A model generated the notes under the pieces. The model made no database searches. It was not told the origin of the DNA and saw only the letters and a program-made list of their open reading frames with translations. This document shows, piece after piece, positions 1-25,265 of a stretch of DNA of 25,265 bases. The translations under genes were made by a program, and so were the position numbers. Origin of the DNA: Parcubacteria group bacterium CG_4_9_14_0_2_um_filter_35_11 (lineage in GTDB: Bacteria > Patescibacteriota > Minisyncoccia > Minisyncoccales > GCA-002788555); NCBI GenBank assembly GCA_002788555.1, contig PFRL01000055.1, forward strand, positions 1 through 25,265. The letters are read 5' to 3'. Each line of letters opens with the position of its first letter. The stretch's first letter is position 1.

Positions 1-1709
<1,709 letters not shown>

Positions 1710-3949: not shown

Positions 3950-4004
3950 ATATCTGTCCTCAAATTATATTAAAAAATTCTCTCTAAAAAGAGAACGTGC
4001 CTTT

Positions 4005-4382
4005 TCAGAACTTTAGGGGTTCCCTTTTCAATTTTTCTATTTCCTCTTCAATTTCGGACCTTATTTCTTCGGGAATAGGTATTGCTTTGCCGACCGGACT
4101 TCTGCCCGGGTAGCGCCAGCAGGAAATAATTCTAATTTTTGATTTCTTATTACTAAAATCTAATATTTTTTGATACATCACCCAAATTTCATGAGGCCGC
4201 TTTTTAGAGCCAGCTAGTTGCATTATGGCAATTGTTTCGGGAGCAATTCCTTCTTCTACTCTTTTTGGATTCCTCCAAACTCTTTTAACTCTACTCTCTG
4301 AGAGTCCATAAAATTTCATTTTTTCAATTGAGTGTTTTGTCCAAGAAAGTTCTCTTGTCCCCCTGGGAATTCTAAACTTCAT
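4005..4382 (-). CDS. Hypothetical protein, possibly DUF4258/RelE-BrnT-like fold
   Basis: Open frame; likely start is MKFRIP at 4382 (track start 4403). The pattern WTKHS..KM...GLS..RV......P...E...IWVMYQ...RIIS.WR resembles DUF4258-type small RNase folds (recognition from memory only). Confidence 0.6.
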   Translation of the reverse strand: MKFRIPRGTRELSWTKHSIEKMKFYGLSESRVKRVWRNPKRVEEGIAPETIAIMQLAGSKKRPHEIWVMYQKILDFSNKKSKIRIISCWRYPGRSPVGKAIPIPEEIRSEIEEEIEKLKREPLKF

Positions 4383-4442
4383 ATCCAAAATGACGCAAGA
4401 CAAATTCTTTACCGAAATTTTTTTAAAAAGACATTTATAAAA

Positions 4443-5321
4443 TTAAGCTTCGCACCAAGCACAAATTAAACTACCAGGACCAACGTGGGCTCCAATTACA
4501 GCTGAAATAGGATGTAAAAAAGCAATCTCGATATTCTCCAATTTCGTTTCAATCATCTCCTTTAGCCTTTGGGTATCTTTCAAATTATCGGCGTGGGTGA
4601 GTGCTACTTTAATCTTTTTGCCAATTTTTCTTTCTTTTTCCGTTTCTTTCTCGATCTCGCGGAGCAAGGCCGTCGGTCTGTCTTTAGCTCTCATTTTCAG
4701 GGCGACTGAAGTAACTACTCCGTCTTTTAACCCCAAAAGAGGTCTCATGCCAATTTTAGCCATCTGCCTTACTAAAGAAGCCAGTGTATGAGTCATCCTT
4801 CCACCGGCTTCTAGCCATTTGGGATCTTCCAGCATTCCAAAAAGGTGAATTTTAGGGGTGAATTCTTTTAATATTTTTATAATCTCTTCTACTTTGTAAC
4901 CACTTTCAATTAATTCAACTGCTTTAAAAACAAAGAGTCCTTCGCCAGCAGTAACATTGAGGGAATCGATAACAAAAACTCTTTTTTGTTCATCTTCTTT
5001 TAGTAAACCTCTTGCCTGAAGGGCTGAATTATAACCTCCGGAAATCCCAGAAGAAAGAGTGGTGCAGAGGATTTTCGCAGAATTTTTAAGTCTTTCTTCA
5101 AAATTTTTTTTAAAAGTCCAGGGAGAAGGCTGCGAAGTCTTGGGAAAAGTTTTAAGCCCTCGCTCTTTTGCCTCTCTCATTTTTTGATAAATATTTTCTC
5201 CGGGAATATTTTCGCTTCCTTCCCAATTTATAATATAAGGAACAACTATTATTTGGTATTTTTTAATTAGCTCTTCAGGCACATCGGCACTTTCTCCGAT
5301 TATTAATCCGATTTTTCCCAT
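4443..5321 (-). CDS. DegV/FakB family fatty-acid-binding protein (copy 1)
   Basis: 292 aa with KTSQPS, SSGISGGYNSA, IDS, GGRM and IGAHVGPG motifs. Confidence 0.93.
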   Translation of the reverse strand: MGKIGLIIGESADVPEELIKKYQIIVVPYIINWEGSENIPGENIYQKMREAKERGLKTFPKTSQPSPWTFKKNFEERLKNSAKILCTTLSSGISGGYNSALQARGLLKEDEQKRVFVIDSLNVTAGEGLFVFKAVELIESGYKVEEIIKILKEFTPKIHLFGMLEDPKWLEAGGRMTHTLASLVRQMAKIGMRPLLGLKDGVVTSVALKMRAKDRPTALLREIEKETEKERKIGKKIKVALTHADNLKDTQRLKEMIETKLENIEIAFLHPISAVIGAHVGPGSLICAWCEA

Positions 5322-5379
5322 AACAATGCAATTTTATAAACCTGATTTATTTTGACCTTTTTATCTTAAAATTTTTTAA

Positions 5380-6261
5380 TTAAATTTCGCACCAGGCGCA
5401 AACTAAAGTTCCTGGTCCGACAATACTTCCAATGACATTATCAATTAAATTTAAAAAGGTTATCTCAATATTTTGGAACTCTTTTTGGAGCATTTCTTTT
5501 AATTTTTGAGCCTCGCTTGGGCAATCACCGTGGGTGATTACTATCCTAATTTTTTTACCCAATTTTCTTATTTTCTTTGTTTTTAAATCAAATTCTTTGA
5601 AAAGGGCACTGGGAACATCTTTGACTCCTGTCCTTATCCCAATGGCTGTGATTATTCCTTTTTTGACTCCAAGGAGAGGCCTCACACCAAGCTTGGACAT
5701 TTGTCTGACCCAGTTAGCTAAAAGATGAGAGATCCTTCCGCTAGCTTCTAGCCACTTGGGGTCTTCAAGCATACCAATAAGATGGATTTTGGGAATTAAT
5801 TTTTCCAATGCCATTATAATTTCTTCTATCTTTGCTCTCCCCTCTCTCAGGAAATCTATAGCCTTTAAGACAAGAAGGGCTTTACCTGCACTTCCATTTA
5901 AGGAATCAAGAACAAAGACTCTTTTTGAGTCCTCCTCCCCGAGGAAATTTTTCGCTTGGATTGCTGAATTATAAGTGCCTGAAAGTTTTGAGGTAATGGT
6001 AACACAAAGGATTTTCTCAAATTTTTCTAACTCTCTTTTGAAAATGCCGAGAAAATCTTTTGGGGAAGGTTGAGAGGTTTTAGTAAAGCTTTTAATTCCT
6101 CTTTTTTCTGCCGCTCTCATCTTCTGAAAAATATTTTTGCCTGGTAATTTCTCTACCTCTGGCCAATTAATCTTCAAAGGTACTACTGCTATTTGGTGTT
6201 TTTCAATTATCTCTCGGGGTAAATCAGCTCCTCCGTCAATAATAAGTCCAATTTCCCCCAT
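5380..6261 (-). CDS. DegV/FakB family fatty-acid-binding protein (copy 2)
   Basis: KTSQPS, TSKLSGTYNSA, LDS, SGRI and IGSIVGPG motifs. Start placed at MGEIGLII (6261) by alignment to copy 1 (MGKIGLII), which also removes the overlap with the HAD gene. Confidence 0.93.
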   Translation of the reverse strand: MGEIGLIIDGGADLPREIIEKHQIAVVPLKINWPEVEKLPGKNIFQKMRAAEKRGIKSFTKTSQPSPKDFLGIFKRELEKFEKILCVTITSKLSGTYNSAIQAKNFLGEEDSKRVFVLDSLNGSAGKALLVLKAIDFLREGRAKIEEIIMALEKLIPKIHLIGMLEDPKWLEASGRISHLLANWVRQMSKLGVRPLLGVKKGIITAIGIRTGVKDVPSALFKEFDLKTKKIRKLGKKIRIVITHGDCPSEAQKLKEMLQKEFQNIEITFLNLIDNVIGSIVGPGTLVCAWCEI

Positions 6262-6269
6262 AGTTTTAA

Positions 6270-7064
6270 TTAAGATTGCAAGGTCTCCCAACTGTTTTTA
6301 GAGGCGATTTTTAATAACTCTTTATCTGGCTCAACTACTACTGGATGACCCACTAATTTTAACATTGGCAAATCAAAAATGCTATCTGAATAAGCAAAAC
6401 TTTCTTTAAAATTAACTTTTAATTTTTTTTGGGAAAGAAAGTTTTCCAATTTTTCTACTTTTTGTTTGCCAAAACATAAAGGAGGAACAATTCTGCCAGA
6501 GAATTTATCTTTTTTAATTTCCAATTTTGTACCAATTGCGAAGTTGATATTAAGTTGATTTGCAATAATATTTAAAAGTCCCTGAAAACTTCCAGAAAGC
6601 AAAATAGTGGAAAAACCTTTTTTTTGATGTTCTTTTAGTCTTTTTAGAATATTCTTTTTTATACTTGGCAGAAGATATTCCTTGGCTAACCATTGAAAAA
6701 AAATAGAAGTTTTTCTTTGATTTTTTCCTTTTATCATTGTCGCTATATCTTGCCCCCAACTTTTATAATATTCTTCTTGAGAAAGAAAACCAATCTTCCA
6801 AAAAGGAATCAAGGCCATATGATAAAATATATACCAAAAAACTGGAAAGAGATTCTCTTTTTCTTTTAAATTGTATTTAACAATACCTAACCAGACATGG
6901 CGGCTTACTAAAGTCCCATCCAAATCAAAAATGGCAACCTTTACCCCGTTAGAAAGCTCCACCTTTTGGGATGGAGATGAATTAGATATTCCACCCTTGT
7001 TTCTAGAGAGAATGGAACCTGAAGCCATATTCCTTCTAACGGGGTTTACTTCCTGGTTTCTCAT
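6270..7064 (-). CDS. HAD-IB family hydrolase (phosphoserine phosphatase-like) with a 35-aa N-terminal insertion
   Basis: Motif I FDLDGTL, motif II LLSGS, motif III Lys (GKQK), motif IV YSDSIFD, then HPVVV.PD. Confidence 0.9.
   Translation of the reverse strand: MRNQEVNPVRRNMASGSILSRNKGGISNSSPSQKVELSNGVKVAIFDLDGTLVSRHVWLGIVKYNLKEKENLFPVFWYIFYHMALIPFWKIGFLSQEEYYKSWGQDIATMIKGKNQRKTSIFFQWLAKEYLLPSIKKNILKRLKEHQKKGFSTILLSGSFQGLLNIIANQLNINFAIGTKLEIKKDKFSGRIVPPLCFGKQKVEKLENFLSQKKLKVNFKESFAYSDSIFDLPMLKLVGHPVVVEPDKELLKIASKNSWETLQS
6940..7048. mobile_element. MITE-like element: 101 bp, 11-bp terminal inverted repeats, 4-bp TTTA direct repeats, in frame inside the HAD gene
   Basis: TTTA(6940-43) | CCCCGTTAGAA(6944-54) ... 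TTCTAACGGGG(7034-44) | TTTA(7045-48). Removing the element plus one TTTA (105 bp, 35 codons) restores MRNQEVKVAIFDLDGT. Confidence 0.75.
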
Positions 7065-11394: not shown

Positions 11395-12672
11395 TTAATG
11401 GGTAGCACAAGAGATGCAAGGATCGTAAGCCCGGATGAGGGCTCGAATTTTTCTTATTCTCTCATCTGGTGAGACCTTTAAAAGATTACCAAGATAAACT
11501 TTCAGGTCCTCTTCAAGATTGTTTAAAAATTGAGCAGTAGGGGTAATAATATCACAATCTAAAATTCTACCATTTGTATCAACCTCAAAATAAGTGAAAA
11601 GGGTGCCTCTTGGTGCTTCCATTGCCGAGAGACTACTTCCTTTTTGAATTTTTAATTTAAAAGGTCTTTCTTTCAAATCTTGCTTTAAAATTTCCTGGAT
11701 TAATTTTCCTATTTTTTTAAGAAAATGCAGAATTTCTATTGTCTGACAAAAAAGATTATAGAAAGTATTCTCAAAGAATTTTTCACTTGTTAGATTATGA
11801 TTTTTAAAAAAAATCCCAAGACTTTTTTTTGCTTCGTCAGACAACAAATCTTGATTATTTTTAATTCTGGCAATGGCTCCGAGCATATAAGGCTTACCTA
11901 GGTGTTTTACCCTTTTAACTGGTGGCCTTCTAAGGTCCTCTTCTATTTTACTTGAAAAGAAATCACCGATAGAGAAGGTTTTTGGGGTAAGAATATACTC
12001 TCCTTGGTAAAAGGCATATTCCTTCTTCGGAGAGAGAGAAACGAAATTTGTTTTTCTTTGAAGAGAAGGGTAAGAAAGATTTTGAAAGGTTTTTACTAAA
12101 AATAAAGCGGCATCGTAAACCTCACTTAAATCTTTAGAGAGTTTTTGAATGTCTCTTTTATCGGGTAATTTGGAAAAACCTCCGATTTGAGGCCTCATAG
12201 GATGGATTGCTCTTCCACCGATTATTTCAGTTACTCTTAAAGAAAATTCTCTTATTTTTAGAGCGGCTCTTGCTTCTTTTTTAAATCTTTTCATTAAGTC
12301 TAAATCATTTTCGATATTGAAAAAATCAGGTAAGGCAAGAAAAAAAAGATGGAGAGCATGACTCTGGATAATCTGAGCAGCCAACAACAATTTCCTCAAA
12401 AGCGTGGTTAAAGACGAGGGTTTTACTTCTAAGGTATTCTCCAGGGCCCGACAGGCATTTAAAATATGAACAACCGGACAAATTCCGCAAATTCTGGAGA
12501 CAACTATCGGTACTTCCTCTACTCTTCTTCCAATTAAGATTCCTTCAATCTGACGAAGTCCCAATAAAGTCTGGAGTCTTAATTTCTCAATTTTCCCATC
12601 CCGACTTACCTCTGCCCAAAAACCGGCTTCTCCTTCGATTTTATGAATATGAGGAATAATAATTTTTTTCAT
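11395..12672 (-). CDS. [NiFe]-hydrogenase large subunit (group 3b-like)
   Basis: L1 RICGICPVVH, GGRAIHP, EAPRG and L2 YDPCISCATH ending at the stop codon. Confidence 0.93.
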   Translation of the reverse strand: MKKIIIPHIHKIEGEAGFWAEVSRDGKIEKLRLQTLLGLRQIEGILIGRRVEEVPIVVSRICGICPVVHILNACRALENTLEVKPSSLTTLLRKLLLAAQIIQSHALHLFFLALPDFFNIENDLDLMKRFKKEARAALKIREFSLRVTEIIGGRAIHPMRPQIGGFSKLPDKRDIQKLSKDLSEVYDAALFLVKTFQNLSYPSLQRKTNFVSLSPKKEYAFYQGEYILTPKTFSIGDFFSSKIEEDLRRPPVKRVKHLGKPYMLGAIARIKNNQDLLSDEAKKSLGIFFKNHNLTSEKFFENTFYNLFCQTIEILHFLKKIGKLIQEILKQDLKERPFKLKIQKGSSLSAMEAPRGTLFTYFEVDTNGRILDCDIITPTAQFLNNLEEDLKVYLGNLLKVSPDERIRKIRALIRAYDPCISCATH

Positions 12673-13421
12673 AAAAATTTCTTCACATCATCTTTTATAC
12701 CAAAAATCTCAAGGTTTTCTTCGATTTCCTCCTGGGAGCGTATTCTTTTCAAAAAAATTATAAAATTCTTGGGATTGATATTTTTAAAGATGCCTCGACA
12801 ACCGTAGCACATCACTCTTGATTTTGGACAAATTGCTCTACAACCAGCAAGAGTTATTGGACCAAGACAGGGTTCTTTTTTTCTTAAAAGACAATCTTTA
12901 GTCCCGGCAAGAGGACACTCAGTACAAACTGGTTTTTGAGGAATTTCTGGGATTTTTCCCTCAACGAGCTCATTAGCTAATCGTAAAAATTCTTCCCCAT
13001 TTATTGGGCAGCCGGGTATAGAAAAATCCACTTTGACAAAATTATCGATTTCTTTAATTTCAGGATTAGCAATGTTATCAACATGTTTATAAATAATCCG
13101 AATCGTTTTCTCCTTATTCTGGTAATTTTTCATTTCGGGTATCCCTCCCAAGGCAGCACAATTGCCAAGAGCCACCAATATCTTAGCTTTCTCTCTTGCT
13201 TCTTTTAAGATTTTAAAATCATCTTTGGTAATAGGGTTTCCTTCGATAAAAGCGATATCGAAAAGGTCACATTTTAAGGACTCTTCTTCTAAAAGACTGC
13301 ACTGAGCAAGCTCGACTTTTCGCAAAAAATTAAAGAATTTTTCACCTAAGTTAAATAAAGCAAACTGACATCCTTCGCAAGAAGTTAAAGAGAAAATGGC
13401 AATTTTGGGTTTTTTTCTCAT
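12669..13421 (-). CDS. [NiFe]-hydrogenase small subunit (group 3b delta-like)
   Basis: LTSCEGC, IEG, G.CA..GG, IPGCP and distal cluster ligands C..C...C...C.G.....C...C......CYGCRG; ATGA overlap with the large subunit. Confidence 0.92.
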   Translation of the reverse strand: MRKKPKIAIFSLTSCEGCQFALFNLGEKFFNFLRKVELAQCSLLEEESLKCDLFDIAFIEGNPITKDDFKILKEAREKAKILVALGNCAALGGIPEMKNYQNKEKTIRIIYKHVDNIANPEIKEIDNFVKVDFSIPGCPINGEEFLRLANELVEGKIPEIPQKPVCTECPLAGTKDCLLRKKEPCLGPITLAGCRAICPKSRVMCYGCRGIFKNINPKNFIIFLKRIRSQEEIEENLEIFGIKDDVKKFL

Positions 13422-14158
13422 TGAAGATTTTTAGGATTTCTGAAACTATTTATGGTTTTTTGGGTATATTTTTTAAGATTCTTTGCCTCTTTTTTATTTA
13501 AAACTTGGATGGCATAATTCCAATGAAAGGAAACTTGGTTGCCTAATTTAATTTTTGGCAAAATGTTTTTATCCCAAATAAGATATTTCTTTTTAAGGTT
13601 GCCAAGGTGGGGCTTTTTATTAAATGTTAACGGTTGGTATTCTACCTTTATCTCGTTTTGCGCCTTATCTATTTTTCTCACCTTGCCCCAGCCAATTCGA
13701 CAAAGGTCAACTAATTTTTTAGTAAGAACTATTCTGCCAGAGACGGAGCCTATTACAAGAACGTGAAAACTATGATGGGGCTTGGACCCTGGTGGAACTG
13801 TCTTGGCTCTTAATTTGGCTTCTTTTTCTTCCAGTAAACCCTCAGTAGAAAAATCATGAACAATCATTTTTTTTAATCCAGGAGTTTTTACTTTTTCTAA
13901 GAGTTGATTACCAATCCAATAGGCCTTAACCACTCTTTTTTCAAAAGGATCCTTGATTTTGTTAGCCCTGGCAATTAATTTATAGTAAGGAAAGGCTCCC
14001 TTAAAATTTTTTAGAAGTTTTCTAATTTCCCCTTTGGGAATGTCTTTGCCAGAAATATAATCCAAAAGAATTTTCTTTGCTGTTTTTTCTTGGGGGCCAC
14101 AAAAACCGAGTCGATGGGTAACAATTCCATAAAGAGCGGCTAATTTAAGACCGGACAT
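13418..14158 (-). CDS. DUF6390-like hydrogenase-associated protein
   Basis: LGFCGP, F.GA.PYY..IA, AYWIGN.LL, PHHSFHV, D.CRIGWG.V and VSFHW motifs; 4-nt overlap with the small subunit. Family name recalled, not searched. Confidence 0.7.
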   Translation of the reverse strand: MSGLKLAALYGIVTHRLGFCGPQEKTAKKILLDYISGKDIPKGEIRKLLKNFKGAFPYYKLIARANKIKDPFEKRVVKAYWIGNQLLEKVKTPGLKKMIVHDFSTEGLLEEKEAKLRAKTVPPGSKPHHSFHVLVIGSVSGRIVLTKKLVDLCRIGWGKVRKIDKAQNEIKVEYQPLTFNKKPHLGNLKKKYLIWDKNILPKIKLGNQVSFHWNYAIQVLNKKEAKNLKKYTQKTINSFRNPKNLQ

Positions 14159-16933: not shown

Positions 16934-17794
16934 TTATATAATAGGGCGACAGGCAGCAATTAAAGTACCGGGACCAGAATTCGCTCCTACTATAGGAGGA
17001 GCTAGAGAAACAAAAGCAACTTCTGCTTTTAATTCTCTTTCTATTTTTTCTTTTAAACTATAAGCTAACCCAATATTATTAGTGTAATTTATTCCAACCT
17101 TCATGTTAGTTTTATAATATCTTCTAATTTTCTGAGAATGACATTGAAGTTGACGAAAAATAGCCTTAAAAACATCCCCACTTCCAAAATTAAATCCAGC
17201 GAACCCCACTACTCCTTTTTTGATTCCAACAATAGGCTGAATACCCAGGCTCTTTAATGTTTGGAAAAGCCAAGCCTGTTTTTGACTCATTCTTCCTATT
17301 TTTTCTACCCAAAAAGTATTTTTTAAAAAAGCGACCATTTTAATTTCTCGCTTTAGACTTTCGAGTCTCCTTTTGATTTCTTTTATCTCTTGATGTCCCT
17401 TAATTAATTCTAATGCTTTTAAAACAAAAAGACCTTCGCTGGCTGCCGCATGTCCCGAATCGATTAATTCTATCTTTAAAGAATCCGACATAAACCCTTT
17501 GGCTTGAAATGCCGAATTGTAGGTACCGGATAAGCGACTACTTAAAGTGATAACGACAACTTTCTGAAATCCCTCTAATAATCTTTTGTATGCTTTAATA
17601 AAGTCCCCTGGCGATGGGGCTGAGGTTTTAGGATGGGCTTTAGTTTCTTCCATTATCTGATAAAGGTTTTTCTCTGGAAATTTCTCTGCTTCTGCGAAAA
17701 AGAGTTTTGTCTTGACTATTTCTATTTGATATTCTCTGATGATTTTTTCTGGTAGAGAACAAATATCATCTACAACGATGCCAATATTATCCAT
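16934..17794 (-). CDS. DegV/FakB family fatty-acid-binding protein (copy 3)
   Basis: KTSAPS, SSRLSGTYNSA, IDS, GRM and VGANSGPG motifs. Confidence 0.9.
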   Translation of the reverse strand: MDNIGIVVDDICSLPEKIIREYQIEIVKTKLFFAEAEKFPEKNLYQIMEETKAHPKTSAPSPGDFIKAYKRLLEGFQKVVVITLSSRLSGTYNSAFQAKGFMSDSLKIELIDSGHAAASEGLFVLKALELIKGHQEIKEIKRRLESLKREIKMVAFLKNTFWVEKIGRMSQKQAWLFQTLKSLGIQPIVGIKKGVVGFAGFNFGSGDVFKAIFRQLQCHSQKIRRYYKTNMKVGINYTNNIGLAYSLKEKIERELKAEVAFVSLAPPIVGANSGPGTLIAACRPII

Positions 17795-17827
17795 GAAAAA
17801 AATATAAATTTAAGAATGGAATTAGTC

Positions 17828-19375
17828 TTAGAGAGGAATATTGCCGTGCTTTCGTAGAATCTTTTCTTCTTTTTTATCTAAAAGTGATTCCAGACATTTG
17901 GTCAAAACGCTGGTTGTGTCTTTTGGATTAATTATCATATCCACCTGCCCAAGTTTTGCTGCCTGATAAGGGTTTAGAAAAAATTCTTCCAGCTCTTTTA
18001 TTTTTTCTTTCTCCATCCTCTTAGGATCTTTGCTTTCAGCTAATTCTTTTTTGCAGATTATTTTTACCGCTTGAGCAGGTCCCATCACGGCAATCTGAGC
18101 GGACACCCAAGAAATAACTTTATCATAGCCAAGGTAGCGTGAAGCAAGAGCAATATAAGCTCCTCCAAAAGCTTTCCTTAAAATTAGGCTAAGTTTGGGT
18201 ACAGTAGCTTCGGAAAAAGCGTATAAAACTTTTGCTCCATGGCGGATTATTCCTTGGTGTTCCTGGTCAGCTCCGGGAAGATAGCCAGGAGTATCTACTA
18301 AATTAATTAAGGGAATATTGAAGGCGTCACAGAATCTAACAAAACGAGCAACTTTATCAGAGGAGTTAATATCAAGAGTCCCTGCCATAAACTTCGTCTG
18401 ATTGGCAACAATACCTACCACATTCCCAGCCAGTCTTACAAATCCAACTACCACACTGGGAGCAAAACCAGGCTGGATTTCTAAAAAGGAATTTCTATCA
18501 AATATTTCAAAAATAACTTCTCTCATATCATAACCTTTCTCTTCCTCTTCCGGGACTATTTTTAAGAGAGCGTAATTTTCTTTCTCGAAGAATTCCGAAA
18601 AAATACTTTTTTGCCTGGGAGGGTCTTCAAGATTGTTTTGAGGAAGATAAGATAAAAGTTTTTTAACACCGTTAAAACAATCTTCTTCGTTGTTAAAAAC
18701 GAGATGACAACAGCCACTTTTGACACTGTGAACAGCAGCACCTCCTAATTTATCAAAAGATATTTCTTCGCCAGTTACCGATTTAATTACTTCGGGTCCG
18801 GTAATATACATTTGAGAAATACCATTAACCATAAAAACAAAGTCTGAAAGCCCGGGAGCGTATGAAGCTCCTCCCGCTGATGGTCCGACAACCACACTGA
18901 TTTGAGGGATAACGCCTGAGGCTTTAATCATAGAGTTAAAAATAGCCGCATAGCTATCCAGGCTTGAAATTCCTTCTTGGATTCTTGCTCCACCACTATC
19001 GATTATCCCGATAATGGGCGAACCTGTTTTCCTTGCCAACTCGATGACCTTGACGATTTTTTTGCCGTGCATTTCTCCTAACGATCCTCCCATTTTTGCA
19101 AAATCCTGAGAATAAACATAAACTTGACGATTATTTATCTTCCCAAAACCACTAACTACCGCATCTCCCGGGACTCTTTTTCGGTCCATACCAAACCTTG
19201 AAAAACGACTTTCTACAAAAAGATCTAATTCTACAAAAGTTTCCGGATCAAAGAGCAAGTTAATCCTTTCCCTGGCAGAGAGTTTTCCTTTTTTATGCTG
19301 TTTTTCAGCAAATTCGGGATTTTCCAGCTCAGAATTTTTTTCACTTAGTTTTGCTATCTCTTTTTTGAAATTCAT
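17828..19375 (-). CDS. Acyl-CoA carboxylase carboxyltransferase (single-chain PccB/MmdA type)
   Basis: GKL.ARERI..LFD, QDF...GGSLG, DSGGARIQEG, GPSAGG..Y, DTPGYLPG..QE..GIIRHGAK and KHGNIPL. Confidence 0.95.
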   Translation of the reverse strand: MNFKKEIAKLSEKNSELENPEFAEKQHKKGKLSARERINLLFDPETFVELDLFVESRFSRFGMDRKRVPGDAVVSGFGKINNRQVYVYSQDFAKMGGSLGEMHGKKIVKVIELARKTGSPIIGIIDSGGARIQEGISSLDSYAAIFNSMIKASGVIPQISVVVGPSAGGASYAPGLSDFVFMVNGISQMYITGPEVIKSVTGEEISFDKLGGAAVHSVKSGCCHLVFNNEEDCFNGVKKLLSYLPQNNLEDPPRQKSIFSEFFEKENYALLKIVPEEEEKGYDMREVIFEIFDRNSFLEIQPGFAPSVVVGFVRLAGNVVGIVANQTKFMAGTLDINSSDKVARFVRFCDAFNIPLINLVDTPGYLPGADQEHQGIIRHGAKVLYAFSEATVPKLSLILRKAFGGAYIALASRYLGYDKVISWVSAQIAVMGPAQAVKIICKKELAESKDPKRMEKEKIKELEEFFLNPYQAAKLGQVDMIINPKDTTSVLTKCLESLLDKKEEKILRKHGNIPL

Positions 19376-19385
19376 AGTGGTTTTT

Positions 19386-19413
19386 CCCCACTACCAATGT
19401 ATTGGTGTGGGGG
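19386..19413. repeat. Intergenic hairpin CCCCAC-T-ACCAAT-GT-ATTGGT-GTGGGG
   Basis: Near-perfect inverted repeat filling the gap between birA and the carboxyltransferase gene. Confidence 0.6.
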
Positions 19414-19414
19414 T

Positions 19415-20161
19415 TTAGGTAAGCTCGAGGCTTCCTTCTAAAATTTTAATTATTTTATCTTCCTTTAATTTAATCATAATAGCTCCATCTTTGTCAAAAT
19501 CCAAGACCGTTCCAGGAACTTTTTTATTTTGGACGACTGCCCTAATCTTCCGTCCTATTAAAATTTCATATTTTTTATATTCCTTCAAAATTTCTCTATT
19601 GTTCTTTTTCAAAAACTCTCTAAATAACTTAAGAAATAAACTTAGAATCTCTTTATTATCTACATTTTTGCCCTGTTCTTTTACAACGGAGGTGGCTTCT
19701 GGAGATAAATATTTAGGAAAACTTTTTATATTGGTATTAATCCCCACTCCTGCTATTGAAGTTCGAGATTTTTCCCCGACTATATTTTCTACTAAAATCC
19801 CAGCGACTTTTTTAAAAGCGGGCTTTTTTTGAAAATAGGAAGGGGCTAAAATATCATTTGGCCATTTAATTACTGCTTTAAGACTAGATTTTTCTCTTAT
19901 TGTTTTAACTACTGCTATTGCTGTAACAAAAGGCAAAAGTTGAAGTTTTTTGACCGAGATTTTTGGCAAAATTAAGGAAAAATACAAGCCTCCTGCTGGA
20001 GAGAACCAAAATCTTTTTCCTTTTCCGTAGCCTTTGCTTTGAGAGTTGGCTAAGACCACTGTCCAGCCGTGCAAATTATTTTTAGCTATTTCTTTTGCTT
20101 TAAGGTTGGTGGAGCCAATCTTGGGATAAAATAAAAAACAAATTTGATTAGAATTTCGCAT
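19415..20161 (-). CDS. birA: Biotin-protein ligase (class I, no HTH)
   Basis: STN, V.A..Q..G.G, W.SP.GGLYFS, KWPND, KVAGIL.E, GVGIN and a C-terminal SH3-like domain. Confidence 0.9.
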   Translation of the reverse strand: MRNSNQICFLFYPKIGSTNLKAKEIAKNNLHGWTVVLANSQSKGYGKGKRFWFSPAGGLYFSLILPKISVKKLQLLPFVTAIAVVKTIREKSSLKAVIKWPNDILAPSYFQKKPAFKKVAGILVENIVGEKSRTSIAGVGINTNIKSFPKYLSPEATSVVKEQGKNVDNKEILSLFLKLFREFLKKNNREILKEYKKYEILIGRKIRAVVQNKKVPGTVLDFDKDGAIMIKLKEDKIIKILEGSLELT

Positions 20162-20190
20162 ATAAAGGGTTGACGAAATTTTTCATAAAA

Positions 20191-20607
20191 TCATTCAAGG
20201 ATTATTAATTTCTCGCCACTATTTACAAATTGTTTTTCTTTGACTTCGATTTCTTTTACTCTCCCGTAACTTTCGGAGATAATTTCGTTTTCCATCTTCA
20301 TTGCCACCAAAGTAATGACTGGCTGACCAATCCTTATTGTCTCACCATCTTTGACATGAATTTTTGAAACAATACCAGCAATGGGAGTTTTAATTTCTTT
20401 TTCTTGGGGAAGATTAGGTACTACTTCACTTTTTCTAATACTTTCAAGCGAAGGATAATCTTTCCTTTCGATAAGGACCAACCTGTCAAATTCATCTTTA
20501 CTAAAAAAATAATCTTCATTTTCTACTCTTACTTTGAGAAGATTCTCTTTAATTTCAGAAATTTCAATGTTATAGGATTTATCTTTTAAGAAAATTTTAG
20601 TTTTCAT
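20191..20607 (-). CDS. accB: Biotin carboxyl carrier protein
   Basis: IK.PI.G.V...V..G..I..GQ....L.AMKMENEI biotinylation motif. Confidence 0.9.
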   Translation of the reverse strand: MKTKIFLKDKSYNIEISEIKENLLKVRVENEDYFFSKDEFDRLVLIERKDYPSLESIRKSEVVPNLPQEKEIKTPIAGIVSKIHVKDGETIRIGQPVITLVAMKMENEIISESYGRVKEIEVKEKQFVNSGEKLIILE

Positions 20608-20625
20608 AACTTCCAGCTAAATCTT

Positions 20626-22182
20626 TTAACGAAAGTTTTCTTCTTCTAAAAATTTCTGCCGGTTAATTATCTTCCACTTATTAATTCTATTCTCCTTTCT
20701 ATTAGTTTCTTGAATCTCTTGGAAAAAATGGGCAACTATTAGAGCTATTTCTTTTTTTGTTATCTTTTCGGGAGTTTCTTTAAAAGTAACTTCTTTTTTA
20801 ATCTTGGCTTTAGCTTCTCTAACCTTTTCTATAATATTATTTTCTTGAATAAACGAGGTAGAAAGATTCCCTTCAATGAAATTTTTATTTTGAAGAACAA
20901 TTTTAAAAAAAGGTATTAAAGTAGGGATGCCTTCGATAATGAATTCGTCAAAAGCTCTCCGGGCCCTTGAGATAACTGACTGACGATCTTTATCAAAGAT
21001 AATAAGTTTTGCTATCAAACTATCAAAATAAGGAAATATTCTCTGGCCAACATGACAGAAACTATGAATTTCTATCCCTTTTCCTCCGGGAGGTAGATAG
21101 TGAGTGACAGTTCCAGTCCGAGGGCCAAAATCCTCAGTAGCTTCTTCGGCGCAAATTCTAAATTCCATTGCCCAATTCGACATTTTAATCTTTCTTTGCT
21201 TTAAATCCAATTTTTCACCTTGGGCAATCTTAATTTGCTCCTTAACTAAATCAATTCCTGCTACTAGCTCAGTGACAGGGTGCTCAACTTGTAACCTTGG
21301 GTTAACTTCGATAAAGTAGAAATTCTTTTTACTATCAACTAAAAACTCGACTGTTCCTAAACTCTCATAATTGAAGTATTCTCCAATTTTAACAGCGAAT
21401 TTCCCCATTTTCTTTCTTAATTTTTTGTCCAGAAAAGGCGAGGGAGCTTCTTCAATTAGTTTTTGAAAACGACGCTGGACTGAACATTCTCTTTCTCCAA
21501 GATGCAATACCTTTCCTTTACCGTCACCGACAATTTGGAATTCGATGTGACGAGGCTTTTCTAAACACTTTTCAAAAAAAACCATATCGCTCCCGAAAGC
21601 AGTTTTTGCCATTCTTTTTATCCTTTGAAAATTCATTAATAATTTTTCTTGGTCTCTATCTTTTATAACGGCAATACCTATTCCTCCTCCGCCATCGGCT
21701 GCCTTTAATAAGAAGGGTATGTCCGTTTTTTTAGCTATTTTCAGACATTCTATTTCGTTCTGAATAGGTCTTGGAGTACCATTTAATAATGGACAGCCAA
21801 TTTTTTGAGCAATTTTCCTTGCCTCAAGTTTATTACCTAATTTCCTCAAAGTTTCTCCCTTGGGACCAATAAATTTAATATCATTTTTTTCGCAAAAATC
21901 AGCAAAATCTCCATTTTCAGCCAAAAATCCATATCCCGGGTGAATGGCATCAACATCAGCTTCCTTGGCAATTTCAATCAGTTTTCTTTGGTCCAAATAC
22001 CCTAAAATTCCTTCTTCTTCCAAATAATAAAACTCATCAGCTAATTTCGTTTCCAAAAAGTGCTCTTCTTGACCTTTCTGGGGACAAAGAGCCACTGTTT
22101 TAATTCCCATCTCTTTGCAGGCTCGAATAATCCTTAAAGCTATTTCTCCTCTATTAGCAATGAGAATCTTTTTAATCTCCAT
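20626..22182 (-). CDS. accC: Biotin carboxylase
   Basis: KILIANRGEIALR, IHPGYGFLAEN, KA..GGGG.G, RHIE.Q, ERECSVQRR.QKLIEEAPSP and E.NPRLQVEHPVTE. Confidence 0.97.
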   Translation of the reverse strand: MEIKKILIANRGEIALRIIRACKEMGIKTVALCPQKGQEEHFLETKLADEFYYLEEEGILGYLDQRKLIEIAKEADVDAIHPGYGFLAENGDFADFCEKNDIKFIGPKGETLRKLGNKLEARKIAQKIGCPLLNGTPRPIQNEIECLKIAKKTDIPFLLKAADGGGGIGIAVIKDRDQEKLLMNFQRIKRMAKTAFGSDMVFFEKCLEKPRHIEFQIVGDGKGKVLHLGERECSVQRRFQKLIEEAPSPFLDKKLRKKMGKFAVKIGEYFNYESLGTVEFLVDSKKNFYFIEVNPRLQVEHPVTELVAGIDLVKEQIKIAQGEKLDLKQRKIKMSNWAMEFRICAEEATEDFGPRTGTVTHYLPPGGKGIEIHSFCHVGQRIFPYFDSLIAKLIIFDKDRQSVISRARRAFDEFIIEGIPTLIPFFKIVLQNKNFIEGNLSTSFIQENNIIEKVREAKAKIKKEVTFKETPEKITKKEIALIVAHFFQEIQETNRKENRINKWKIINRQKFLEEENFR

Positions 22183-22195
22183 AGAGAGTATTATT

Positions 22196-22846
22196 TTAAT
22201 GAAAATAGGGATAACCTTTACCGCAGAGCGGAGAGAGCGCCGTCATAACTTTATCAGTAACTTTTCTCAAAATCTGCTCATATTCTCTTTTGGGAAAAGT
22301 AGAGATATCCCCTTCCTCTATAATATCAGAAAAATAAATGGGCTTGCCTATTCTTATAATTCTTTTAAGACTTTTATCTTTGTTCAAAACTCCAACGGGG
22401 ACGACGGGCACTTCTGTCTTTATCGCTAATTCTGCCACTCCCGTCTTTCCCTTTTTTAGAGTTTCACTTCTATTAGTACCTCCTTCTGGATAAATAACAA
22501 TAATTTTACCTTTTTTTAAATATTGAATGACTTTTTTTAAAACTTCTCTCCTGTTTTTGCTTTTTCTATTTACGGTGATAGTTTCAGTAAAAAAATAAAG
22601 CGGACCAAAAAAGAGGGGGTGATAAGGCGTCTCCATCTTACCAATAAAATGAACTTTCTCAAATTGACTTTTAAAAGGAATGGCAATAAAAAAATGGTCG
22701 AAATAACTCTGGTGATTAGCAGCAATGATGAAGTTTTTACCGTGAAGAATATTTTCTTCTCCTTCGATCTTTTCAATAAAAAATTTTTCGATAATGGGAG
22801 CGAGGATATATCTTGCCAAAATGGAAAAACTTTTTTTCATAAACAA
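22196..22846 (-). CDS. plsC: 1-acyl-sn-glycerol-3-phosphate acyltransferase (PlsC family)
   Basis: NHQSYFD (HxxxxD), FIGK, IYPEGG and GVA.LA......VP. Start may be the second Met (22840). Confidence 0.88.
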   Translation of the reverse strand: MFMKKSFSILARYILAPIIEKFFIEKIEGEENILHGKNFIIAANHQSYFDHFFIAIPFKSQFEKVHFIGKMETPYHPLFFGPLYFFTETITVNRKSKNRREVLKKVIQYLKKGKIIVIYPEGGTNRSETLKKGKTGVAELAIKTEVPVVPVGVLNKDKSLKRIIRIGKPIYFSDIIEEGDISTFPKREYEQILRKVTDKVMTALSPLCGKGYPYFH

Positions 22847-22854
22847 GTTACCAC

Positions 22855-23796
22855 TTAATCGAGCTCCGCCATTGCCCCCTGAAGAATTTCTTTTGTTTCT
22901 TTCATAATCTCTTCAACTACCTCTTGGCAACTTTTAATTTCAGAGATTCCGGCTGCCGAGATACCAGCCAAAAGAGGAATATTTTCCACGTTTTCTCCGC
23001 CAATTGAACCAGCAATTTTTTCGGCTTTTAATTCTTCTGGAAAGGCTCCTTTTTCTTCTAGTTTTTTCCAGTTTTCTGATAATTTATTTTTTATTAATCG
23101 GATTGGGTGACCGGTAAATTTCAAGACTACTTCAATGTCATCGGCCGTAGATTCCCTGATTCTTTTTTTGTAGGCTTTTGAGACAATAGCTTCAGTTGTT
23201 GCCAAAAATCTTGTCCCCATCTGAATTCCGTCAGCCCCTAACAAAAATGCGGCGGCAACAGTTCTACCATCGTAAATACCACCGGCTGCAATTAAGGGGG
23301 TTTTCTTTAATAATTTTTTTGCTTGAGGAATTAAACAAAAGGTGGTATTTTGGCCAATATGGCCTCCCGATTCTAGCCCTTCGACTACTACCGCGTCAGC
23401 ACCATTTTGTTCCATTTTTTTAGCTAATCGAGGAGAAGGAACGACTGGAATAATTTTAATTCCAGCGGCCTGAAAATAAGGAAACAAAGGTAAAGGATTG
23501 CCGCCTCCGGTAAAAACGATTGGCGCCTGGCAACGAATAACTACCTTTACTAATTCTTCCATCTTAGGATTTTGTAAAAATAAGTTAACAGCGAAAGGAT
23601 TTTTTGTTAATCCCCTCGTTTTTTTAATTTGGCCTTCTAACCATTGAGCCGACATTAATCCTGAACCAATTGTACCCAAACCCCCACTATTAGAAACCGC
23701 TGAAACTAAATTAGATTCGGAAATCCCGGCCATTCCTCCTTGGATAATTGGGTATTTTATCCCCAAGAGTTTTACCAAAGAATTATTTTCGAACAT
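22855..23796 (-). CDS. fabK: FMN-dependent enoyl-ACP reductase II (FabK / nitronate monooxygenase family)
   Basis: YPIIQGGM, VS..GGLG.IG, EG.ESGGH, IAAGGI.DG and QMGTRF. FabK is preferred because it is overlap-coupled to fabZ. Confidence 0.78.
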   Translation of the reverse strand: MFENNSLVKLLGIKYPIIQGGMAGISESNLVSAVSNSGGLGTIGSGLMSAQWLEGQIKKTRGLTKNPFAVNLFLQNPKMEELVKVVIRCQAPIVFTGGGNPLPLFPYFQAAGIKIIPVVPSPRLAKKMEQNGADAVVVEGLESGGHIGQNTTFCLIPQAKKLLKKTPLIAAGGIYDGRTVAAAFLLGADGIQMGTRFLATTEAIVSKAYKKRIRESTADDIEVVLKFTGHPIRLIKNKLSENWKKLEEKGAFPEELKAEKIAGSIGGENVENIPLLAGISAAGISEIKSCQEVVEEIMKETKEILQGAMAELD

Positions 23797-24268
23797 ATTT
23801 CTTATTAAATTCTTCTTTTTTGACCGTTGCCACAGAAAATCTTGCCTCGCATTTTAACTCTTCTCCAACAAAAGCCTGACCTTTGATGTGGGAAATTTTA
23901 AAAGTAAAAGATCCGGGAGGCATACCATAGATGCCTAAGATTACATCTTTTAAAATAATTTTATCACCTGGGAAAATTGGCTGCGAAAATTGAACTCCTC
24001 TTACGTCATAAGCCAGAAAATGATAATTTTTGTGGTCTTTCCCTAATTTTTCTCTTAAAAATATAGTAGAGAGTTGACCTAAAGCTTCTATTACCAGGAC
24101 TCCTGGCATTATCGGAAAATCAACAAAATGACCTTTAAAATAATAATCGTTTTTAGAGGTTTGATAAAAGCCCGCAATTTTATTTCCGCTAATCTCCTCA
24201 ACCCCATCAACAAATAAAAATGGCTCGTCGTAAGGGATAATCTTTTTAACTTCTTCTTTAGATAACAT
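23783..24268 (-). CDS. fabZ: 3-hydroxyacyl-ACP dehydratase (FabZ-like hot-dog fold)
   Basis: IP...PFLFVD, F.GHF...PIMPGVL.IEA..Q with the catalytic His and Glu retained, and F...I.PGD. Confidence 0.85.
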   Translation of the reverse strand: MLSKEEVKKIIPYDEPFLFVDGVEEISGNKIAGFYQTSKNDYYFKGHFVDFPIMPGVLVIEALGQLSTIFLREKLGKDHKNYHFLAYDVRGVQFSQPIFPGDKIILKDVILGIYGMPPGSFTFKISHIKGQAFVGEELKCEARFSVATVKKEEFNKKYVRK

Positions 24269-24274
24269 AAGCTA

Positions 24275-25265
24275 TTAAAAAGATGGAATTTTTGTTTTCC
24301 CTGTGTTAACTATCAACATTTTTTTATTTTTGGGTACTTTATCTCTTATTTGCAACATTAAAGCTAAACCAGCAATTCCCGATGGTTCACAATTTATTCC
24401 TTGAGACTTAGCTATCTCCAAGGCTTCATCTAAATATTCTTCTTTTAATAAATGGACGTCAGATTCTGGGCCACAAAATGCCGCCGTTCGATATAACCTA
24501 ATCCACTGTTCATCATAATGGACAAAGGGCAAATGGGGAGAATAAAGTTTGTCTGCTTTACTATTGGGATTATTAGTAGTAACCCCGAGGAAATTACATC
24601 TCCTTAAAATCCCAACGTCACCTTTAAACCTAGGATCATGAATTCTTGTCGAAACTTCTTTTTTATTGATATTTAATATATTTTCATATAAATTTCCGGT
24701 TCCAAAAGGAATAAAGCAATAGTCTGGAGAGTTGTTTATTATTTCATAACTTAACCAATCATAAAATCTGGTTGTTGGATCTAGGGCTTCATTTGAAGTA
24801 ATATCTAATCCTTCACGATTGTGAGTTAAAATAAGAATTTCTCTCCAGCTAAAAGATTTCTTTGATAAGTCAGTTTCATAAAGTTCGCAACCTAATTTTT
24901 TGAGAGATTTTAGGGCAATTGACTCGATAAATTTTCTGTCATACAAAACTTTCAAATTTGGTAATTTATATTTTTTCAGTACTGTCTGAATAGCAATCGC
25001 AGCTGAACCAAAACTGATAATGGACATCCGAGGCAGAGAACCTTTAAATTGTCCTCTTTTTTTAGCTAATAAAAAGTCTCGATAGGTCACTACCATTTCC
25101 CATGCCATTCTGTCCTTATGAGTTCCGGTGGGGTTAACGCTCTCATCTTTTAACCAAACATTATTAAAGCCCGGAACTTCTATCTTATGGGTTGGGGTGG
25201 CAGGAAATTTAGGACTATCCGGAGGAAATTCTGGATTATTGGGATCGTTTTCCGAAGGGACAACT
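24275..25265 (-). CDS. PLP-dependent fold-type-II enzyme (threonine synthase/dehydratase-like); 5' end beyond the window
   Basis: The frame is open from the window edge through ...VWLKDESVNPTGTHKDRMAW (PLP lysine), so the track start at 25108 is internal. Also FIPFGTGNL, CEPSGIAGLA and LIVNTG. Confidence 0.82.
   Translation of the reverse strand, partial: VVPSENDPNNPEFPPDSPKFPATPTHKIEVPGFNNVWLKDESVNPTGTHKDRMAWEMVVTYRDFLLAKKRGQFKGSLPRMSIISFGSAAIAIQTVLKKYKLPNLKVLYDRKFIESIALKSLKKLGCELYETDLSKKSFSWREILILTHNREGLDITSNEALDPTTRFYDWLSYEIINNSPDYCFIPFGTGNLYENILNINKKEVSTRIHDPRFKGDVGILRRCNFLGVTTNNPNSKADKLYSPHLPFVHYDEQWIRLYRTAAFCGPESDVHLLKEEYLDEALEIAKSQGINCEPSGIAGLALMLQIRDKVPKNKKMLIVNTGKTKIPSF

Follow-up and report, generated by a model that had tools for sequence, protein, structure and literature searches.

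A conserved lipid gene cluster without recognizable acyl carrier protein genes in a Nealsonbacteria-related patescibacterium

Related lipid systems and the gene block of this contig

Bacteria of the candidate phyla radiation (CPR), or Patescibacteria, are commonly regarded as unable to make membrane lipids (PMC7242380; PMC13293708), and the phospholipid genes of the phylum are still stated to be incomplete in a 2026 review. Here, we analyzed contig PFRL01000055.1 of Parcubacteria group bacterium CG_4_9_14_0_2_um_filter_35_11 (C45 in our numbering), which at its full length of 25,265 bp is called the window. Every long open reading frame (ORF) in it lies on the minus strand, and the block at 16934-25265 encodes, in the order of transcription, a PALP-fold protein, FabZ, FabK, PlsC, biotin carboxylase (BC), biotin carboxyl carrier protein (BCCP), BirA, carboxyltransferase (CT) and DegV. 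This fatty-acid and phospholipid gene block offers a direct test of how such bacteria obtain membrane lipids.

The closest description is that of Probst et al. 2020 (ISME J, PMC7242380, 'Lysolipids and CPR bacteria'), who reported near-complete fatty-acid and phospholipid pathways without AcpS, FabD and PlsX in some Nealsonbacteria and raised the possibility of a pathway independent of acyl carrier protein (ACP), leaving open how acyl-phosphate forms. Those Nealsonbacteria resemble the source genome of the window in phylum, order-level group and aquifer or groundwater habitat. They also share its content, that is, homologues of enzymes from the type II pathway that synthesizes fatty acids (FASII) together with PlsY and PlsC, and neither ACP, AcpS, FabD nor PlsX, and the data of that study came from the same kind of aquifer samples as those containing the window DNA. 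Thus, the outline was already known, and the initial annotation of the window, made from its sequence alone, overrated the novelty of the block. The paper gives no gene order and mentions no thiolase, carboxylase, coenzyme A (CoA)-completing genes or FakA-DegV fusion, and we found no later publication that takes the ACP-independent idea for Nealsonbacteria further. To our knowledge, what is added here to the printed account is the anatomy of the cluster, the absences in a closed genome, the co-occurrence pattern, the CoA-salvage genes and the Fak fusion.

Three working systems invite comparison. In the fatty-acid synthase of Sulfolobus acidocaldarius (Schmerling et al. 2024, bioRxiv 10.1101/2024.07.05.601840), a DUF35 protein holds a ketothiolase, a ketoreductase of the short-chain dehydrogenase/reductase (SDR) type and a dehydratase, the enoyl reductase is separate, and chains are carried on CoA. 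This synthase is the closest working precedent, the same logic possibly being followed here with the bacterial enzymes FabG, FabZ and FabK. The likeness lies in the proposed use of CoA thioesters in place of ACP, a thiolase of the SCP2/archaeal type with a probable DUF35 partner, a ketoreductase of the SDR type and an enoyl reductase that stands apart. The archaeal system differs in having a MaoC dehydratase and a medium-chain dehydrogenase/reductase (MDR), whereas the present cluster has FabZ (a hot-dog, FabA-like enzyme) and the flavin mononucleotide (FMN)-dependent FabK, MaoC and MDR not having been searched for separately. Further differences are that the DUF35-like module here appears to be fused to a LarA-like DUF362 domain, that the cluster has an acyl-CoA carboxylase among its fixed members and that acyltransferases for ester lipids stand in the same operon. 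The FakAB-PlsX-PlsY-PlsC pathway of Firmicutes (PMC10146087, PMC9136124) shares DegV/FakB proteins, a Dak2-type kinase domain, the acyl-phosphate-dependent PlsY and PlsC; in contrast to it, the genome studied here has no PlsX and no ACP, and its putative kinase is only the N-terminal part of FakA fused to DegV. The FabK-type FASII of Clostridia and Streptococcus (PDB 7L00, 2Z6I) has FabZ, FabK and FabG homologues with the same catalytic residues, yet ACP, AcpS, FabD, FabH and FabF are missing here, and the carboxylase consists of BC, BCCP and a single 515-aa CT of the PccB type rather than AccABCD.

From the gene identities, the conserved gene order, the co-occurrence and the absence of ACP machinery, all of which were observed, we infer a system in which chains would be built on CoA without ACP and fed into Fak, PlsY and PlsC, and we see the chances for and against this proposal as evenly balanced. 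Carriage on CoA, condensation by the thiolase, flux in the direction of synthesis and the donor used by PlsC belong to the conditional part of the proposal. The block is conserved and looks complete from acetate to phospholipid, and most of its ~15 genes code for soluble enzymes of small size, which lend themselves to expression and to assays with acyl-CoA. A functional block would constitute the first ACP-independent fatty-acid synthase in bacteria and would link bacterial FASII parts with an archaeal thiolase system, which bears on the 'lipid divide' debates; should it not function, the cluster would be a scavenging or remodelling device and the standard view would stand.

Anatomy and conservation of the cluster

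As summarized in Table 1, the eight genes that the initial annotation had named, FabZ to DegV, were all found in place on the minus strand, each backed by Pfam and NCBIfam models. Its statement that acpP, fabD, fabH, fabF, fabG, fakA, plsX and plsY are lacking from the window was likewise correct, the genome having fabG, three plsY genes and a fusion of fakA with degV at other places. The genes are tightly packed, with gaps of 33 bp (DegV-CT), 39 bp (CT-BirA), 29 bp (BirA-BCCP), 18 bp (BCCP-BC), 13 bp (BC-PlsC) and 8 bp (PlsC-FabK) and with overlaps of 14 bp between FabK and FabZ and 26 bp between DegV and ComM. FabZ retains the catalytic residues His47 and Glu61 in the context GHF..PGVLviEALGQ, and its best PDB match was the anammox amxFabZ (7QV0, 84 bits). 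PlsC carries the HX4D and PEGG motifs as HQSYFD and YPEGG and matched Thermotoga maritima PlsC (5KYM) best. The carboxylase is complete in its parts, since it comprises BC, CT, a biotin ligase and a BCCP that bears a biotinyl-lysine motif, as required for a biotin-dependent acetyl-CoA carboxylase. CT matched 1VRG, 1X0U and 1XNW at 552-609 bits, and the alignment placed an Ile (GGAYI) at the position of Asp422 of Streptomyces coelicolor PccB. This position is the one considered by Diacovich in 2004, and Ile there reportedly goes with acceptance of acetyl-CoA. The residue is thus compatible with acetyl-CoA as a substrate of CT, as judged from the alignment.

Table 1. Positions and supporting matches of the genes described (window coordinates unless a contig is named)
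Feature	Position	Strand	Support
PALP-fold gene, cysteine/threonine synthase-like	24275..25264	-	PF00291, 63 bits; contig end cuts ~12 codons
FabZ-type 3-hydroxyacyl dehydratase, 161 aa	23783..24268	-	PF07977 and FabZ models, below equivalog cut-offs
FabK-type FMN enoyl reductase, 313 aa	22855..23796	-	TIGR03151, 314 bits (cut-off 453)
PlsC-type lysophosphatidate acyltransferase, 216 aa	22196..22846	-	PF01553, 99 bits
BC subunit of acyl-CoA carboxylase, 518 aa	20626..22182	-	PF02786, PF00289, PF02785; PRK08654, 588 bits
BCCP, 138 aa	20191..20607	-	PF00364; AMKM biotinylation motif
BirA-type biotin-protein ligase, catalytic domain only, no helix-turn-helix domain	19415..20161	-	TIGR00121, 163 bits, above cut-off
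CT, PccB/AccB/MmdA type, 515 aa	17828..19375	-	PF01039, 580 bits
DegV/FakB-type fatty-acid-binding protein at the end of the block, 286 aa	16934..17794	-	PF02645 and TIGR00762, above cut-off
Two tandem DegV/FakB paralogues, outside the range of the initial annotation	4443..6291	-	PF02645, 173-175 bits
[NiFe]-hydrogenase large and small subunit genes with DUF6390 gene	11395-14158		
GT4 glycosyltransferase	C3 1697-2908		weak matches to diacylglycerol glycosyltransferases
FakA(N)-DegV fusion	C3 (L108) 2954-4711		Dak2 kinase domain, 118 bits
Archaeal-type thiolase	C48 (L107) 111-1268		PRK06064, 322 bits
Archaeal-type GTP-dependent dephospho-CoA kinase (DUF359) fused to archaeal-type phosphopantetheine adenylyltransferase (PPAT)	C48 1258-2175	-	
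B12-binding radical-SAM/DUF4070 protein	C48 2237-3760		
DUF362 protein	C48 3769-4836		

The identity of FabK had been left conditional in the initial annotation, with nitronate monooxygenase (NMO) as the other possibility. The protein aligned over its full length with solved FabKs, retained the histidine of the GGHIG motif and scored 216-256 bits against five of the six (including 7L00, 5GVH and 2Z6I) and 199 bits against 4IQL, versus at most 142 bits against NMOs, the latter value belonging to a PA1024-type enzyme. In the tree, 22 patescibacterial sequences formed one clade (support of 100 in the Shimodaira-Hasegawa-like approximate likelihood ratio test) on a long stem among true FabKs. These scores and the position inside the FabK tree rule out an NMO, and FabK was found to group as the initial annotation would have it. 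Since its score lies below the equivalog cut-off of TIGR03151, we describe the patescibacterial protein as a divergent clade of FabK, as read from its sequence; the sister group of this clade was not resolved, and no donor can be named. Among 300 genomes sampled evenly across the phylum, none had a FabK of the window type, and two distant FabKs (42-45% identity) occurred in 0.9-Mb genomes. In six loci of relatives (L016, L017, L018, L021, L039 and L044), FabZ is part of a ~500-aa protein with a second domain resembling NMO or enoyl reductase, which is ~34% identical to FabK and forms a clade of its own. A gene of the ornithine cyclodeaminase (OCD)/mu-crystallin family often follows this fusion and precedes FabK.

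More than 15 related genomes hold a contiguous cluster in the order FakA(N)-DegV, thiolase, DUF359 kinase (opposite strand), radical SAM (in some relatives only), DUF362, BioY, FabG, FabZ, FabK, one or two PlsC, BC, BCCP, BirA, CT, PlsY, DegV and PlsY. Of a conserved lipid supercluster of ~17 kb in Nealsonbacteria-related Paceibacteria, the window carries the downstream two-thirds. In the closed 689,429-bp chromosome CP179887.1, the block lies at ~509.6-526.1 kb and is adjoined by CdsA-like and CDP-alcohol transferase genes, and mevalonate genes stand directly upstream of the cluster in some relatives. PlsY follows CT by 20-60 bp in other genomes, while in a metagenome-assembled genome (MAG) of Ca. 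Nealsonbacteria (contig PETJ01000018.1, L022 496-2787) CT and PlsY share one 763-aa frame, which could be a genuine fusion or stem from a sequencing error in the MAG.

The remaining parts were found on other contigs of the source assembly. Contig C48 (5,954 bp) carries the thiolase, the DUF359/PPAT fusion on the opposite strand, the B12 radical-SAM gene, DUF362, BioY and the first 113 codons of FabG, at which the contig ends, full-length FabG copies being present in relatives. The DUF359 kinase gene overlaps both neighbours and is kept in at least five genomes (C48, L033, L035, L039 and L044). On contig C3, the N-terminal Dak2 part of FakA (~300 aa) is fused to a full DegV/FakB domain; residues 7-297 match positions 6-309 of the 549 positions of the FakA model, the middle and C-terminal FakA domains being replaced, and a protein of ~595 aa of this kind heads the cluster in relatives, too. 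Because of synteny with these relatives, C3, C48 and C45 most likely constitute one locus. An acetate-CoA ligase scored above its curated cut-off on contig C35, and the genome holds in total six DegV, three PlsY and a second PlsC, in addition to a CdsA-like gene and two CDP-alcohol phosphatidyltransferases. Just upstream of the Fak fusion on C3 is a GT4 glycosyltransferase gene. The radical-SAM protein of C48 weakly matched the 'lipid biosynthesis B12-binding/radical SAM' family of ladderane clusters as well as P-/C-methyltransferases; it could be a modifier of acyl chains.

To describe the co-occurrence, 41 genomes of the order were scored; these are kin and many are incomplete, such that the counts describe a pattern and are not statistics. 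FabK was found in 9, the thiolase in 10 and CT in 11 of them, in nearly the same set, compared with 5 for 3-hydroxy-3-methylglutaryl (HMG)-CoA synthase and 14 for the Dak2 kinase. Because the thiolase is found in twice as many genomes as HMG-CoA synthase, it follows the lipid module rather than mevalonate synthesis, and a thiolase serving mevalonate only is a weakened explanation. These results indicated that thiolase and carboxylase belong to the lipid module and that Fak is more widespread.

Carrier protein, condensing enzyme and direction of the pathway

FASII is defined by ACP. In the source genome of the window, hidden Markov model (HMM) searches detected no ACP (PF00550), AcpS (PF01648), FabD (PF00698), beta-ketoacyl-ACP synthase (KAS) I/II (PF00109), KAS III (PF08541) or PlsX. 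Among the 41 genomes of the order, PF00550 was absent from all nine that bear FabK, and the three relatives with a PF00550 match all lack FabK; ACP was not detected in any of eight further cluster-bearing genomes, the closed CP179887.1 included, nor was AcpS in the eight cluster-bearing genomes searched for it, the closed one again included. Local HMMs, which were derived from the canonical fabK clusters found in other phyla and were checked with Pfam, likewise revealed neither in the closed genome nor in that of the window any ACP, FabD, FabF or PlsX, and the FabH model gave weak matches only, to the cluster thiolase and HMG-CoA synthase, the sole thiolase-fold proteins of the closed genome. 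The whole-genome search thus yielded no ACP, FabD, FabF, FabH or PlsX and did yield FabG, Dak2, PlsY, CdsA-like and CDP-alcohol transferase genes, a check that the initial annotation had proposed. FabG, FabZ and an enoyl reductase of the FASII type are present with their catalytic residues (His/Glu in FabZ, GGHIG in FabK). Since not even a closed relative has ACP, AcpS, FabD or KAS, this is not FASII, and the suggestion in the initial annotation of the tail of such a pathway does not hold. A search for a hidden ACP among small ORFs inside the clusters of relatives led only to a nucleotidyltransferase/HepT (MNT-HEPN) pair of a toxin-antitoxin-like kind, which in relative G035 (L020 5907-6538) is inserted between BirA and CT together with a 440-aa gene.

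The SCP2/archaeal-type thiolase is the sole candidate for a condensing enzyme and the only thiolase of the closed genome; the copy on C48 matched archaeal-type acetyl-CoA acetyltransferases best among PDB entries (7YVY, 6ESQ). Patescibacterial thiolases share an invariant Cys-His-Asn (Cys367-His368-Asn369 in the copy on C48) just ahead of the IGG loop, a stretch that is missing from the two nearest archaeal-type thiolases of solved structure. The N-terminus of the DUF362 protein contains C-x2-C-x10-C-x2-C, invariant in 11 sequences, which is the canonical spacing of the DUF35 ribbon (PMC12329534). In its AlphaFold model (mean predicted local distance difference test score, pLDDT, of 71.6, lower at the N-terminus), the C-terminal part matched LarA-like racemases with an E value of ~2e-5, and the first ~100 residues matched, in Foldseek, only DUF35 proteins that sit on thiolase-fold enzymes, namely 7PXP_A, 6ESQ_F (25% identity), MucABC, ChsH2 and PhlB. 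The model thus suggests that the protein is likely a DUF35-like/DUF362 fusion. In the ESM Atlas, the DUF362 protein family is common mainly to Minisyncoccota and DPANN archaea (Nanobdellota, Woesearchaeota).

In the CoA-based scheme, acetate would be activated by the acetate-CoA ligase, and the archaeal-type PPAT/dephospho-CoA kinase encoded in the cluster would complete CoA from phosphopantetheine. The thiolase, probably held by the DUF35-like/DUF362 fusion, would condense acyl-CoA units, after which FabG would reduce, FabZ dehydrate and FabK again reduce the chain as CoA thioesters in place of ACP derivatives, and BC, BCCP and CT, served by BirA and BioY, would make malonyl-CoA. Finished or scavenged acids would be bound by the DegV proteins and phosphorylated by FakA(N)-DegV. 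PlsY would then acylate glycerol-3-phosphate and PlsC add the second chain, presumably from acyl-CoA, before the CdsA-like and CDP-alcohol transferase steps. A route from acetate to lipid is possible from what the thiolase, FabG, CoA, BioY, FakA-DegV and acetate-CoA ligase genes encode, and since CoA-completing enzymes, biotin uptake and attachment and an acetate-CoA ligase are all present, they point to CoA thioesters made from acetate. The intact catalytic motifs of FabZ, FabK, PlsC and BCCP count in its favour as well. With neither PlsX nor ACP, PlsC cannot receive acyl-ACP and would have to take acyl-CoA or acyl-phosphate, and the Fak fusion would answer, on paper, how acyl-phosphate for PlsY arises without PlsX.

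Several observations weigh against the CoA-based scheme. We know of no FabZ or FabK that is active on anything other than ACP-bound substrates. Patescibacterial thiolases carry HDAF in place of the catalytic HDCF cysteine motif of SCP2-type thiolases, and the single thiolase of the closed genome, which holds a full mevalonate set, must also feed HMG-CoA synthase. The carboxylase is a fixed member of the cluster with no identifiable user of malonyl-CoA, and the archaeal thiolase has been shown not to use malonyl-CoA, which leaves the conserved carboxylase with no explained role. Pfam detected only DUF362 in the DUF362 protein and neither of the DUF35 models PF01796 and PF12172, and the DUF35-like fold matches are weak (E values of 6e-3 to 3e-2, template modelling scores to the target of 0.33-0.40) and fall in the N-terminus of low pLDDT. 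No glycerol-3-phosphate dehydrogenase was found in a search of the source genome, and no RNA run holding the window DNA was found. The genome is 87.6% complete, and genomes of kin are not independent samples. Finally, the same genomes possess a full scavenging set (FakA-DegV, six DegV and PlsY), which could cover the need for lipid without synthesis.

Scavenging and remodelling is the main rival, since its genes are all present. Acids or lysolipids would be taken from neighbours by way of DegV, FakA-DegV, PlsY and PlsC, with FabG, FabZ, FabK and the thiolase adjusting the chain length or saturation of imported acids. Six DegV proteins, the FakA(N)-DegV fusion and three PlsY fit this explanation, as do the Fak genes of 14 of the 41 relatives, five of them without a detected FabK, and the lack of a proven enzyme condensing malonyl-CoA; moreover, lysolipids are enriched in CPR cells, whose lipids are believed to be of host origin (PMC7242380). 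However, remodelling also requires a thioester carrier, and the ACP problem stays; a route of synthesis needs precisely such genes as those for acetate-CoA ligase, for completing CoA and for the carboxylase together with BirA and BioY; thiolase, CT and FabK co-occur as a module; and G011, a genome 100% complete, has the cluster and no Dak2 match. We therefore consider scavenging with remodelling somewhat unlikely as the whole explanation. Uptake and modification only, in the form proposed by the initial annotation, does not take account of the thiolase, FabG, the CoA-salvage genes, BioY and the FakA-DegV fusion on other contigs.

A bolder form of the CoA-based scheme is a self-sufficient, ATP-driven and ACP-free hybrid synthase, in which the thiolase with HDAF and Cys-His-Asn would condense acyl-CoA with malonyl-CoA decarboxylatively. 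This would explain the conserved carboxylase, and the cells would no longer depend on a host for their lipids, for instance when living on methanogenic archaea, partners that can supply no fatty-acid lipids. That the residue changes mean decarboxylative condensation is speculation from sequence, and we regard the hybrid synthase as unlikely.

A role outside the membrane, with thiolase, FabG, FabZ and FabK serving as an electron sink of the reversed beta-oxidation or butyrate type or making a small acyl product beside acyltransferases placed there by chance, appears distinctly improbable. The enzyme set does correspond to the chemistry from acetyl-CoA to butyryl-CoA, and the contig also encodes a hydrogenase of what is a fermentative organism. 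Such a sink has no need of a carboxylase, though, and PlsC, PlsY, DegV, the FakA fusion, CdsA-like and CDP-alcohol transferase genes are interleaved or adjacent in many genomes, CT and PlsY being fused in one. A disguised FASII, with an unrecognized condensing enzyme and a divergent carrier protein or another small protein or cofactor as carrier, would suit FabZ and FabK, which depend on ACP wherever studied, and could hide among easily missed short proteins or the uncharacterized cluster proteins (DUF362, radical SAM, PALP or OCD), but it is very improbable in view of 0/17 cluster-bearing genomes, one of them closed, with a match to PF00550 or the local ACP HMM, the lack of an AcpS/Sfp-type transferase and of FabD, and the nucleotidyltransferase/HEPN identity of the small ORFs in one relative's cluster.

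Source genome and neighbouring genes

The source assembly comprises 543,537 bp in 58 contigs. The closest homologues of FabK were 63-82% identical to it and came, a few probable mislabels aside, from contigs with Patescibacteria, Paceibacterales, Parcubacteria or Nealsonbacteria in their titles, and they include that of the closed chromosome; the next-best homologues, at 47% identity or less, belong to Bacillota, Bacteroidota and others. All 40 relatives sampled from the order have genomes of 0.3-0.9 Mb. The source genome is thus patescibacterial, as the initial annotation had assumed, and belongs to the same order as Nealsonbacteria. One close FabK homologue is on a contig labelled Diapherotrites archaeon (L034).

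A chimeric contig or mis-binning, which would have undermined the initial annotation, was ruled out. GC content is even across the window; in a relative of the same family (L018), ComM, thioredoxin reductase and TyrS adjoin the cluster likewise; and Logan contigs assembled independently from two further runs of aquifer or groundwater samples, 6.5-8.7 kb in length, covered DegV to FabZ with 1-5 differences. At least 24 metagenome runs of 2017 from aquifers or groundwater contained the window DNA. One sediment metatranscriptome held short pieces only, at ~80-85% identity and from relatives, which does not show transcription, and a scan for promoters and terminators gave no more matches than in shuffled sequence.

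The PALP gene is the ninth gene of the block, was not named in the initial annotation and lies 6 bp upstream of FabZ. No homologue of it was found in the clusters of relatives or in G041, and the gene is peculiar to this genome at that position. A pairing of PALP with the OCD-family gene in the manner of SbnA/SbnB was dropped, as the two never occur together, PALP being found only here and OCD only in the others. Its product gave weak matches only in the PDB, and in the ESM Atlas its family, too, is common mainly to Minisyncoccota and the DPANN archaea Nanobdellota and Woesearchaeota. On the same contig as the lipid genes, the [NiFe]-hydrogenase subunit genes and the DUF6390 gene are adjoined by genes for thioredoxin reductase and an EamA transporter.

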